From Escherichia coli (GTDB lineage Bacteria; Pseudomonadota; Gammaproteobacteria; Enterobacterales; Enterobacteriaceae), in NCBI RefSeq assembly GCF_030013205.1, contig NZ_CP122648.1: DNA of 64,000 bases; one strand, written 5' to 3'. How positions within the stretch are numbered: the stretch's first letter is position 1; every line of letters starts with the position of its first letter. The notes beneath the pieces are model-generated. The model made no database searches. It worked only from the letters and a program-made list of their open reading frames with translations, and was not told where the DNA came from. Made by a program: the position numbers and the translations under genes. Positions 15,937 to 19,160 of the stretch are shown here, piece after piece.

Positions 15937-16319
15937 AATTCGGTTACTCCTTTACGAACGTTTTCGATATCGCTTTGCGTACCCATGAGTTCAAAGCGGT
16001 ACAACCACGGCACGCCGCATTTCCGGGCTATCACATCTCCGGCGCGGCCATACGCCTCACCAAAGTTGCGATTACCCGAAGCAATAACGCCGCGCAGCAA
16101 CGCCCGGTTGTGCTCGTCGTTTAAAAAGCGAATGACCTGTCGTGGCACCGCGCCAGCCGTACCGCCGCCGCCGTAAGAGGGCACGATCAGGATGTAAGGC
16201 TCGTCTACCTGAATCCGTTCCCGCTCATTGAGCGGGATGCGCACCGCGGGCAGCCCTAAACGTTCGATAAAACGCTGCGTATTTTCGGAGCTGCTGGAAA
16301 AGTAGACGAGCTGGCTCAT
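15909..16319 (-). CDS. nrdI: Flavodoxin-like NrdI
   Basis: 136 aa; overlaps nrdE start. Confidence 0.95.
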
Positions 16320-16561
16320 GCACTGGCAGCGTGTGGCGCTGGATGCAGACGATTGATCATGTCCGGGCGGAAACCAGACCAGCTAAGATCGCCTGCAATC
16401 ACAACCGGCAACTGACGAAAGCCCTGAGCACGCAGCGCTTCCGCCGCTTCAGGAACGCGATCGACATTAATCATTTCAAAATCAAAGCCCCGGTTTTCCA
16501 TCGCCCGTTTGGTGGCGTGGCACTGAACGCAATCGTTACGAGTGTAAATGGTAATGCGCAT
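16316..16561 (-). CDS. nrdH: Glutaredoxin-like NrdH redoxin
   Basis: 81 aa with CVQC redox motif. Confidence 0.95.
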
Positions 16562-16769
16562 GATTCGTATTTCCGTTTAAAATGAAGATACGGCGCGATG
16601 ATACGCGTCGGGTTGTCTCTCTGTTGATACAGAGATACTATATGTAGTTGAAAAAAGATTCAACCATACAAGATATGGGAATTTTAGATTGATTACGCCA
16701 CCGATGAATGGCTCAACGGGGTAGGGGATTTTGTGTTTTTTTGCCGGGTGAATACCCGGCATCAAGAAG

Positions 16770-17201
16770 TTACATCCGCATGGAAACGGCCAGACGGTTA
16801 AAACAATTCATCAGCCCGATGGCAAACGTTAAGTCGCTGATCTCTGCTGCGCTGAAATGCTCAAGCAAAGGCTGATAAACCTCGTCTTCCGCATGGGTTC
16901 TGGCAATTTCGGTTACCGATTCCGCCCATGCCAGCGCCGCCCGCTCGCGTTCATCAAAATGATGGCTTACGCGCCAACCTGCCAGGGCATCCAGTTTGTG
17001 CTGTGGCACGCCGGATTTGCGCAATGCTTTGCTGTGCATCTCCAGACAAAATGCGCAGCCGTTGATTTGCGAGACGCGCAAATAAACTAACTCCATCAAC
17101 GTGGTATCCAGCGTGCTATTTTCCAGTGCCGTTTTGGCCTGCACTAGTGCGTTATACACTGCCGGGCTAAGTTCGTAGTAAGGCTGACGTAATGTAGTCA
17201 T
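16770..17201 (-). CDS. Carboxymuconolactone decarboxylase / AhpD-like family protein
   Basis: 143 aa ORF with the CxxC…H core (NGCAFCLEMHS) typical of the AhpD/CMD family; I do not recall this gene between nrdH and ygaM in K-12. Confidence 0.7.
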   Translation of the reverse strand: MTTLRQPYYELSPAVYNALVQAKTALENSTLDTTLMELVYLRVSQINGCAFCLEMHSKALRKSGVPQHKLDALAGWRVSHHFDERERAALAWAESVTEIARTHAEDEVYQPLLEHFSAAEISDLTFAIGLMNCFNRLAVSMRM

Positions 17202-17288
17202 ACAGTTTCTCCTCTTATTAACGCCCGCAATGTAGCACTATAATGGACTGCTAAAGAGAGCCATAAATTACCTAAAAAAGCAGACCAT

Positions 17289-18623
17289 ATGCCGCGCTAT
17301 CAGGATATCGCCCGTCAGTTAAAAACGGCTATTGAGCAAGGGGAACTGAAACCCGGCGCAAGGCTGCCTTCAAGTCGTACCTGGTCGCAGGAGCTGGGGG
17401 TGTCTCGATCCACTGTCGAAAATGCGTATGCTGAGCTGGTGGCGCAAGGATGGCTGATCAGGCGGGGACAGGCTGGCACATTTGTCAGTGAGCGGATATA
17501 TCCGCAACAATCTACTGTACAAGTTGTAGCTTTTGCCGGTGAAAGTCAGCAACCGTTGCCATTTCAAATGGGATTACCCGCACTCGATCTCTTTCCGCGA
17601 GAGCTGTGGGCGCGGGTGATGGGGCGTCGCCTTCGTACCCAGACGCGCTTTGATTTGGCGTTAGGCGATGTCTGCGGTGAGGTGGCGTTGCGCGAGGCAA
17701 TAGTTGATTACTTACGCGTTTCACGTGGGATTGATTGTCAGCCAGAGCAGGTCTTTATCACTCACGGTTATGCGGCCTCAATAGCTTTAATTCTGCACGC
17801 GCTGGCGAAACCGGGAAACGGGATGTGGATAGAAGATCCCGGCTTTCCACTGATTCGCCCGATTGTCACTCGCCATGATGTGGAAATTTTGCCTGTGCCG
17901 GTTGATGACAATGGACTGGATATCACAAGCGGAATACAAAATTATCCTGATGCGCGTTTTGCCCTGATAACACCAGCACACCAAAGTCCGCTGGGTGTGG
18001 CGCTCTCTTTAGCGCGCAGGCATCAGATACTGGAATGGGCAGATCGTAGTCAGGCATGGATTATTGAAGATGATTATGACAGTGAGTTTCGCTATCACGG
18101 TAAGCCGTTACCGGCGTTAAAAAGTCTCGACGCACCGCAGCGGGTAATTTATGCCGGAACATTCAGCAAAGCGCTATTTCCTGCATTGCGCTGTGCGTGG
18201 CTGGTGTTGCCAGTGAAGCAAATTGCACAATTCCGCCACCAGGCGTCACTGGCTCCATGTGCGGTACCTGTTCTATGGCAGAACACACTGGCAGACTTTC
18301 TTCGCGAGGGGCATTTCTGGCGGCATCTGAAGAAAATGCGTCAGCATTATGCTCAACGTCGGCAATGGATTGAGCAAGCGTTGACGCAGCAAGGATTTCA
18401 GGTTGTGCCGCAGAAAGGTGGTATCCAGATGGTGATCAGAATGATAGGCGATGATATTGCCCATGCGCGTAAAGCCAATGCTGCAGGCCTTGCGGTGCAG
18501 GCACTTAGCGACTGGCGTATCCGTTCAAGTGGGGAAGGTGGATTACTGCTCTCGTTTACTAATATCGTTAACGAAGGTATGGCGCGACAGGTAGCACAAC
18601 AATTACGTAAAGCCTTAAGCTAA
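17289..18623 (+). CDS. MocR/GabR-type transcriptional regulator (GntR HTH fused to PLP aminotransferase-like domain)
   Basis: 444 aa; N-terminal GntR-type HTH (…RTWSQELGVSRSTVENAYAELV…) and C-terminal aminotransferase fold I region; divergent from the AhpD-like gene. Confidence 0.75.
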   Translation: MPRYQDIARQLKTAIEQGELKPGARLPSSRTWSQELGVSRSTVENAYAELVAQGWLIRRGQAGTFVSERIYPQQSTVQVVAFAGESQQPLPFQMGLPALDLFPRELWARVMGRRLRTQTRFDLALGDVCGEVALREAIVDYLRVSRGIDCQPEQVFITHGYAASIALILHALAKPGNGMWIEDPGFPLIRPIVTRHDVEILPVPVDDNGLDITSGIQNYPDARFALITPAHQSPLGVALSLARRHQILEWADRSQAWIIEDDYDSEFRYHGKPLPALKSLDAPQRVIYAGTFSKALFPALRCAWLVLPVKQIAQFRHQASLAPCAVPVLWQNTLADFLREGHFWRHLKKMRQHYAQRRQWIEQALTQQGFQVVPQKGGIQMVIRMIGDDIAHARKANAAGLAVQALSDWRIRSSGEGGLLLSFTNIVNEGMARQVAQQLRKALS

Positions 18624-18624
18624 A

Positions 18625-18652
18625 AAACCCCGAAGCCAGGCTTCGGGGTCAA
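18625..18652. terminator. Putative bidirectional terminator between MocR-family gene and ygaM
   Basis: AAAAACCCCGAAGCCAGGCTTCGGGGT hairpin between convergent genes. Confidence 0.5.
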
Positions 18653-18679
18653 AGACGCGTATTTATTATCATTATTGCA

Positions 18680-19009
18680 CTACGATTTGCGCATGCTTAA
18701 CAGTGCGCCGATAAAAATACCAACCGCAGCTGCTGTACCCACGCTACACCAGGGTCTTTCACGAACAAAAGAATCCGCGCAGCCAACGGCATCGCGCGCG
18801 GCTTGCTGGACGCGAGTACGACCATGCATTCGCGCTCTGGTTTCTTTCAGTAGAGCCTGCGCTTTACTACGAGCGGCTTCGGCTTCCCCTTTGGCGTCGC
18901 TGCCCCAGGACTTCAATACAGATTCGAGGCTGTCAGCTAATTGATTGACATCATTCTGGATATCCTGCACGCCATCATCGACGTCGTTGCGGTTCGGTCG
19001 GTTAAACAT
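18680..19009 (-). CDS. ygaM: DUF883/ElaB-family membrane-anchored protein
   Basis: Start placed at MFNRPNRNDV… (109 aa); C-terminal TM anchor; conserved synteny. Confidence 0.85.
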   Translation of the reverse strand: MFNRPNRNDVDDGVQDIQNDVNQLADSLESVLKSWGSDAKGEAEAARSKAQALLKETRARMHGRTRVQQAARDAVGCADSFVRERPWCSVGTAAAVGIFIGALLSMRKS

Positions 19010-19160
19010 ATGATCCCCCATTAGAATTCGATGTAATTTTCAGTGTAGACCATAATTTTCTTAACTGAGGTTCATCGCGGCTTTATGGACTTTTCTGAAA
19101 GCGTTGTGAATGCGCAATCAGGTAAGGTAGGCCCGCGGTTGATAATAACGAGGATCAAAT

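Follow-up and report, generated by a model that had tools for sequence, protein, structure and literature searches.

The window, by which we mean the whole 64,000-nucleotide stretch of the Escherichia coli chromosome that was analysed, carries on its minus strand nrdHIEF, the operon of the manganese, or class Ib, ribonucleotide reductase. The genes at the promoter end of this operon are the following.

Positions 16316–16561, minus strand: nrdH, with which nrdHIEF begins and which is the target of the regulation, defined by its open reading frame and the RefSeq annotation.
Positions 16770–17201, minus strand: an open reading frame of 143 amino acids of the carboxymuconolactone decarboxylase (CMD) family, AhpD-like, defined by the open reading frame and annotation.
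Positions 17289–18623, plus strand: a gene for a MocR/PdxR-like regulator, divergent from the CMD gene, taken from the annotation.

The A of the nrdH ATG is at position 16561 and the last base of the CMD open reading frame is at 16770, coordinates that bear out the 208-bp gap given by the initial annotation. Beyond the MocR-like gene lies ygaM, from position 18680 onward. Bases 16300–19100 are 100% identical to E. coli strain K_EC180. The 87-bp divergent intergenic region between the CMD-family and MocR-like genes (17202–17288) has the layout typical of a MocR regulator and its target. The gene for the regulator NrdR is located outside the window; it was found in 5,424 of 5,426 complete E. coli genomes, and the host can be regarded as one that encodes NrdR.

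The initial annotation described the AhpD-like gene as inserted next to nrdH, a description that did not survive comparison with other species. In a set made up of one genome per species and comprising 80 Enterobacteriaceae loci that encode NrdH, the CMD/MocR pair is present between ygaM and nrdH in the same orientation in 41 species belonging to many genera. These include E. albertii, E. whittamii, many Citrobacter, S. enterica subsp. diarizonae and Yokenella, as well as Pseudescherichia, Raoultella, the Klebsiella oxytoca group and Pluralibacter, and the protein identities of the CMD and MocR homologues occupy a range comparable to that seen for NrdH and YgaM. Within E. coli, the pair is found in about 1,276–1,400 of 5,421 genomes, CFT073, 536, O157:H7 and 042 among them, and is absent from K-12-like genomes. 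Considering its synteny across so many genera, the pair is most simply taken to have been present at this site ancestrally and to have suffered repeated losses, K-12 representing a deletion. The segment missing in K-12 extends from the T-run of the ygaM terminator (at about position 18625 of the window) to just upstream of a hairpin, the 3′ arm of which is gone from K-12 too.

Positions 16741–16758, minus strand: stable hairpin GCCGGGT-ATTC-ACCCGGC directly after the stop codon of the CMD-family gene, read from the sequence.

This hairpin marks the nrdH-side edge of the missing segment. On the sense strand it is followed by seven A residues and by no U-tract, and a terminator scan called no terminator at this hairpin on either strand. 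As the U-tract is absent, there is no canonical terminator between the CMD gene and the nrdH promoter (PnrdH), and it is conceivable that transcripts of the CMD gene read through into nrdHIEF. In CFT073, the CMD-family coding sequence (2124–2609 of the locus) is annotated as 54 nt longer, at 486 bp, and ends 151 bp before the nrdH ATG, over the hairpin region.

The interval between the CMD gene and nrdH contains two 16-bp NrdR boxes separated by a linker.

Positions 16681–16666, minus strand (nrdH sense): NrdR box 1, promoter-distal, TTCCCATATCTTGTAT, which aligns with K-12 box 1 TTGCTATATATTGTGT.
Positions 16665–16651, minus strand: 15-bp linker GGTTGAATCTTTTTT, identical to that of K-12 and holding the putative −35 hexamer TTGAAT.
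Positions 16650–16635, minus strand: NrdR box 2, promoter-proximal, CAACTACATATAGTAT, whose K-12 counterpart is CAACTACATCTAGTAT and whose last six bases are TAGTAT.

Paired NrdR boxes upstream of nrdH had been proposed in the initial annotation on the basis of the strings GATACTATATGTAGTT (plus strand, 16634–16649) and CCATACAAGATATGGGAA (16664–16681), which span the actual 16-bp boxes, shifted by no more than 2 nt. The comparison with the K-12 nrdH promoter that it suggested gives a gap-free alignment of the operator to the ygaM–nrdH intergenic region, and the proposal is upheld by this base-for-base correspondence to the K-12 operator, by the critical box positions, by the 15-bp linker and by conservation throughout the family.

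The K-12 nrdHIEF operator has been characterized biochemically (Rozman Grinberg 2025, PMC12176259): a 57-bp K-12 nrdEF probe binds NrdR loaded with ATP and dATP with a Kd of 138 nM (PMC12176259). A mutational study of 2026 lists C4, A6, A8, T9, T11 and G13 as the highly conserved positions of the NrdR box, a partially palindromic 16-mer, and describes that the G13C replacement in box 2 of nrdEF abolishes NrdR binding; positions 3, 5, 7, 10 and 14 are reported to be tolerant in mutagenesis. All six conserved positions are intact in both boxes of the window. The linker measures 15 bp; NrdR operators have linkers of 15–16 bp, which set their box centres a whole number of helical turns (31–32 bp) apart, and here the centres are 31 bp, or three turns, apart. 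From C4 to G13, box 1 has an AT content of 75% and box 2 one of 88%, compared to a native range of 63–100%, and box 2 ends 73 nt from the nrdH ATG, the same distance as in K-12. The motifs are the already known NrdR operator of nrdHIEF, which was reportedly described by Rodionov and Gelfand in 2005 and by Torrents in 2007, and their identification is correct but ordinary.

The arrangement is conserved throughout the family. The box pair with its 15-bp linker is present in all 80 Enterobacteriaceae species, and the distance from the end of box 2 to the ATG is 71–75 nt in every one of them, three apparent exceptions being due to a shifted tblastn start. The 12 critical positions (six per box) are free of mismatches in 75 of the 80 species and carry a single mismatch in the remaining five. 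The TAGTAT that closes box 2 on its 3′ side never varies (82 of 82 sequences), nor does the TTG that starts TTGAAT in the linker across the 80 species, and the per-column information profile peaks at the core of box 1, at GGTTGA and over almost the entire box 2. Of the 5,426 complete E. coli genomes, 5,420 have the operator; the exact 57-nt operator of the window occurs in 18 of these 5,420. Strain P276M, a low-identity match, was disregarded on account of its frameshift-ridden assembly.

The only conserved σ70-like hexamer pair at this locus is TTGAAT (16663–16658) and TAGTAT (16640–16635), which are separated by 17 bp and together match the consensus at 8 of 12 positions. From their sequence and conservation, we infer that these hexamers are the −35 and −10 elements of the nrdHIEF promoter, a geometry that places the transcription start near position 16628.

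Positions 16627–16629, minus strand: putative nrdHIEF transcription start, about 7 nt past TAGTAT and about 67 nt before the ATG.

The K-12 start site reportedly given by EcoCyc and by Monje-Casas in 2001 agrees with this location; the mapping of the nrdHIEF transcription start and of its −35 and −10 elements is said to go back to Monje-Casas in 2001, Torrents in 2007, and Martin and Imlay in 2011. The promoter scanner did not call the TTGAAT-17-TAGTAT pair, which is below its threshold. The pair that it did report, TCAACA-18-TATCAT (16627–16598), was rejected as the main promoter because neither of its hexamers is conserved in other species, unlike TTGAAT and TAGTAT. Counted from the putative start, box 2 would occupy positions of about −22 to −7, covering spacer sequence and the whole of the −10 hexamer, and box 1 positions of about −53 to −38, abutting the −35 hexamer. 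The boxes are located upstream of a ribonucleotide reductase operon and overlap its putative core promoter as read from the sequence and supported by conservation, and occlusion of the core promoter is the usual arrangement for NrdR.

Combining these findings, we hold with high confidence that the region constitutes the promoter-operator of nrdHIEF, the class Ib ribonucleotide reductase operon, with NrdR boxes laid over a σ70 promoter. According to the mechanism described in the literature, a NrdR tetramer carrying ATP and dATP would bind both boxes together, bend the DNA and exclude RNA polymerase; NrdR carrying ATP only would assemble into higher oligomers that are unable to bind DNA, and the operon would be derepressed. 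Two further regulators would act on the same promoter: (i) Fe-Fur, bound to a weak site at the start codon (about +58 to +76 from the putative start), would repress the operon in iron-replete cells, and (ii) apo-IscR would activate it via a type II site that shares sequence with the −35 hexamer.

To score the boxes independently of the locus, we used a symmetric NrdR position weight matrix (PWM) whose only inputs were the four K-12 boxes of nrdAB and nrdDG, to the exclusion of the nrdHIEF boxes. Box 2 ranks first among 63,985 positions of the window (14.5 bits), and the box pair, with a combined 17.1 bits, is the best in the window, the next unrelated pair scoring 4.5. Box 1 ranks 55th of 63,985 with 2.6 bits, compared to 10.1 bits for box 1 of K-12, a low score that should not be over-read because a four-site PWM is tiny. 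The difference in score, together with the fact that 4 of the 16 box 1 positions (3, 5, 10 and 15) differ from K-12, could mean that the window carries a functionally weakened NrdR operator and that repression of nrdHIEF in island-type strains is looser than in K-12. We consider this improbable. Positions 3, 5 and 10 are individually tolerant in mutagenesis (box 1 has C at positions 5 and 10), and all six critical positions are kept; position 15 is at the edge of the box. Furthermore, of all box 1 forms, TTCCCATATCTTGTAT is the most frequent in the comparison of genera (Citrobacter, Salmonella, Enterobacter and E. albertii), which shows that it has been maintained for a long time and has not decayed; E. 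coli 042 has it as well. Finally, in strain E2348/69, whose promoter contains the 8-mer CGTAATCA typical of the window allele class, nrdE is still derepressed 15–24-fold upon deletion of nrdR (PMC3458845). Judged by its sequence, the window allele would be expected to bind NrdR as well as the K-12 allele does. Box 2 differs from its K-12 counterpart at position 10. This C10A change (position 16641) is rare, setting the window apart from nearly all other E. coli; it brings the box nearer to the NrdR consensus and creates TATAGT beside the −10 hexamer.

The differences in box 1 are part of a larger pattern in which two E. coli promoter haplotypes are distinguished by three box 1 positions and by a patch immediately upstream of the box.

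Positions 16682–16725, minus strand: upstream patch of about 45 bp, strongly different from K-12 in alignments and containing CGTAATCA.

The haplotype of the window resembles E. albertii, Salmonella and Citrobacter, and that of K-12 is the odd one out; the K-12-type arrangement is found in about three quarters of E. coli genomes. The published work on NrdR and Fur at this operon rests on the K-12 promoter, which on the simplest reading is the derived allele, the window representing the ancestral form found throughout the family; the K-12-type promoter may be regulated differently from the ancestral type.

A second alternative to the NrdR promoter-operator described above is that the conserved blocks are mainly contacts of RNA polymerase and IscR and that their likeness to NrdR boxes is secondary. 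The invariant TAGTAT falls within box 2 and TTGAAT within the linker, apo-IscR is reported in the literature to activate PnrdH by way of a type II site with the −35 hexamer inside it, and a search with an IscR type II pattern (25 bp, symmetric CCxYA half-sites, the right one of which would hold the −35 hexamer) detects a match that overlaps box 1.

Positions 16658–16684, no strand assigned: candidate IscR type II site ATTCCCATATCTTGTATGGTTGAAT, which matches the pattern at 7 of 9 positions and overlaps both box 1 and the −35 hexamer.

The half-sites of this candidate are, however, 2 bp too close to each other compared to the canonical spacing, and K-12 matches the pattern worse and is devoid of the left CC half-site. 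Moreover, conservation extends to C4, A6 and A8 in box 2 and to the entire box 1 core, none of which has a role as a −10 or −35 element, NrdR binds the K-12 version directly and loses this ability upon the G-to-C replacement of G13 in box 2, and mutations of C4 or G13 that spare the −10 and −35 hexamers yet abolish NrdR repression are reported for both K-12 and Salmonella. It is very unlikely that polymerase and IscR contacts are the main reason for the conservation. The two readings are compatible and not mutually exclusive.

As for the possibility that the motifs are chance AT-rich palindromes without a regulatory role, short palindromes are frequent in AT-rich intergenic DNA and the single-box core C.A.AT.T.G is not enriched (13 occurrences in the window compared to 18.8 expected), but the 12-position paired pattern C.A.AT.T.G-N21-C.A.AT.T.G occurs once where 0.01 occurrences are expected from dinucleotide shuffles (0.16 if one mismatch is allowed), the pair is the top PWM pair in the window and only 3 of 200 whole-window shuffles reach its 17.1 bits, its position is fixed in 80 species, and it is orthologous to the experimentally bound K-12 site, by which this possibility, to which we assign a negligible probability, is already refuted.

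The NrdR promoter-operator of the window can be compared to three known systems. In the K-12 operator, the position is orthologous and the linker, the critical positions, the 5′ leader and the Fur site are identical to those of the window, whereas the upstream side is occupied by the ygaM terminator instead of the CMD/MocR pair and about 45 bp of upstream sequence have diverged. In Salmonella Typhimurium, nrdHIEF is likewise preceded by paired NrdR boxes, mutation of which derepresses the operon (Panosa 2010, PMC2892513), and the operon is repressed by Fur, which binds to the promoter fragment (PMC2892513); its validated Fur box, however, is 309 bp upstream of the transcription start, whereas the E. 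coli Fur site is on the nrdH start codon. Salmonella subspecies carry the box 1 of the window, TTCCCATATCTTGTAT. The E. coli nrdDG and nrdAB operators also consist of two 16-bp boxes with a 15-bp linker and display affinities of 113–160 nM, but their partner regulators are different (FNR and H-NS for nrdDG, DnaA and H-NS for nrdAB), and the functional box pair of nrdAB is downstream of its promoter. What the present analysis adds to the textbook account is the ancestral gene pair, the position of the Fur site and a hairpin in the leader; the understanding of NrdR itself is unchanged.

The leader hairpin is located between the promoter and the nrdH start codon.

Positions 16610–16591, minus strand: GC-rich hairpin CGACGCG-TATCAT-CGCGCCG in the nrdH 5′ leader, identified by conservation and pairing.
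Positions 16590–16579, minus strand: T-rich tract TATCTTCATTTT after the leader hairpin, read from the sequence.

The hairpin is found at −49 to −30 from the ATG in at least 73 of the 80 species, its stems being conserved and its loop variable. In an alignment of 73 distinct sequences, 81% of the cells are paired and 5 of the 7 pairs display changes on both sides (11 cells), values that are matched by 6–7 of 500 shuffles. Clear cases of such both-side changes come from two Citrobacter species, with GATG(T)...GCATC, and from K. michiganensis, with GACGT...ACGTC. At the third pair, 62 of the 73 sequences have an A·C mismatch, which would correspond to G·U on the antisense strand, and the mean minimum free energy is −7.0 kcal/mol for the sense strand and −10.4 kcal/mol for the antisense strand, compared to −4.1 kcal/mol for shuffled sequences. 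As most stem positions barely vary, this evidence is suggestive only, and it would suit an RNA element and a DNA palindrome alike. The fold of the whole leader RNA shows no global structure (z = −0.03), an Rfam scan of positions 16200–17400 with E-values of up to 1 returned no RNA family, and the top results of a literature search for a nrdHIEF leader or attenuator included no paper with the term nrdHIEF and no description of this hairpin. The plus-strand 'terminator' that was called by the scanner at 16591–16610 was rejected, being an antisense reading of the leader hairpin that ends no plus-strand gene. The fixed distance from the ATG and the maintenance of pairing through both-side changes nevertheless make the hairpin a candidate, and we tentatively put forward, as a minority possibility, that it is an undescribed cis-regulatory element of nrdHIEF. 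It might function as a transcription attenuator or pause site, as a determinant of mRNA stability, or as a palindromic operator for another factor. If true, a leader element would add a post-initiation layer to the control exerted by NrdR, Fur and IscR.

Regulation of nrdHIEF by Fur, the other claim of the initial annotation, is documented: the operon belongs to the core Fur regulon of nine strains, and Fur ChIP-exo peaks are found at nrdH. No Fur-PWM-positive site, however, is present among the boxes or upstream of them (16572–16769). The Fur PWM was built from nine experimentally supported K-12 sites, whose coordinates were taken from Table 4 of Chen 2007 and converted to the current K-12 record. 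Near nrdH, it gives a positive score to two sites only.

Positions 16553–16571, no strand assigned: weak Fur box AATACGAATCATGCGCATT, with its centre one base before the nrdH ATG (position −1), Fur PWM score 8.5 bits, rank 15 of 63,982.
Positions 16547–16565, no strand assigned: second, overlapping Fur site, 6 bp off, 5.2 bits.

The two sites conform, weakly, to the 19-bp 9-1-9 Fur matrix, matches to which typically overlap at a distance of 6 bp. Their scores are far from the 24–28 bits of the training sites, and 21 positions of the window reach at least 8 bits, which makes the PWM insufficient by itself; the support for the site comes from its coincidence with in vivo data. Chen 2007 describes a 10.1-bit nrdHIEF Fur site 728 bp upstream of ygaC, which is the same place as 16553–16571. 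We mapped the coordinates of published ChIP-exo peaks onto the genome records to derive their positions relative to the nrdH ATG: the Fur peak is at −2 to +28 in MG1655 and at +8 to +20 in W3110 and, in the island-bearing strains, at −2 to +11 in 042 and at +2 to +14 in CFT073. The best-supported Fur site of nrdHIEF is the one at the start codon and not the often-quoted upstream "Fur box". The 8-mer CGTAATCA (16697–16690 in the window), which was called a Fur box in E2348/69 (PMC3458845), is included in the stretch 16572–16769, in which the Fur PWM found nothing above 0, and the same is true of the K-12 equivalent. This null result agrees with Chen 2007, where the K-12 upstream site scores 1.4 bits and shows 'extremely weak binding' of Fur in vitro. 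A second Fur ChIP-exo peak of MG1655 (P87) is located at −152 to −118, which corresponds to the patch 16682–16725, and given this peak there may be a weak or cooperative upstream Fur contact.

The Fur ChIP-exo peak of strain Sakai falls 118–130 bp upstream of the ATG in NC_002695.2 and was left out of the Fur evidence; version.1 of NC_002695 is presumably 128 bp shorter, and the peak would then fall on the start codon. Another weak Fur-like site (6 bits), AATGATAATAAATACGCGT, is located at 18655–18679, immediately past the ygaM stop codon on its 3′ side; it precedes the nrdH ATG by 232 bp in K-12 and by about 2.1 kb in the window, where the gene pair lies between.
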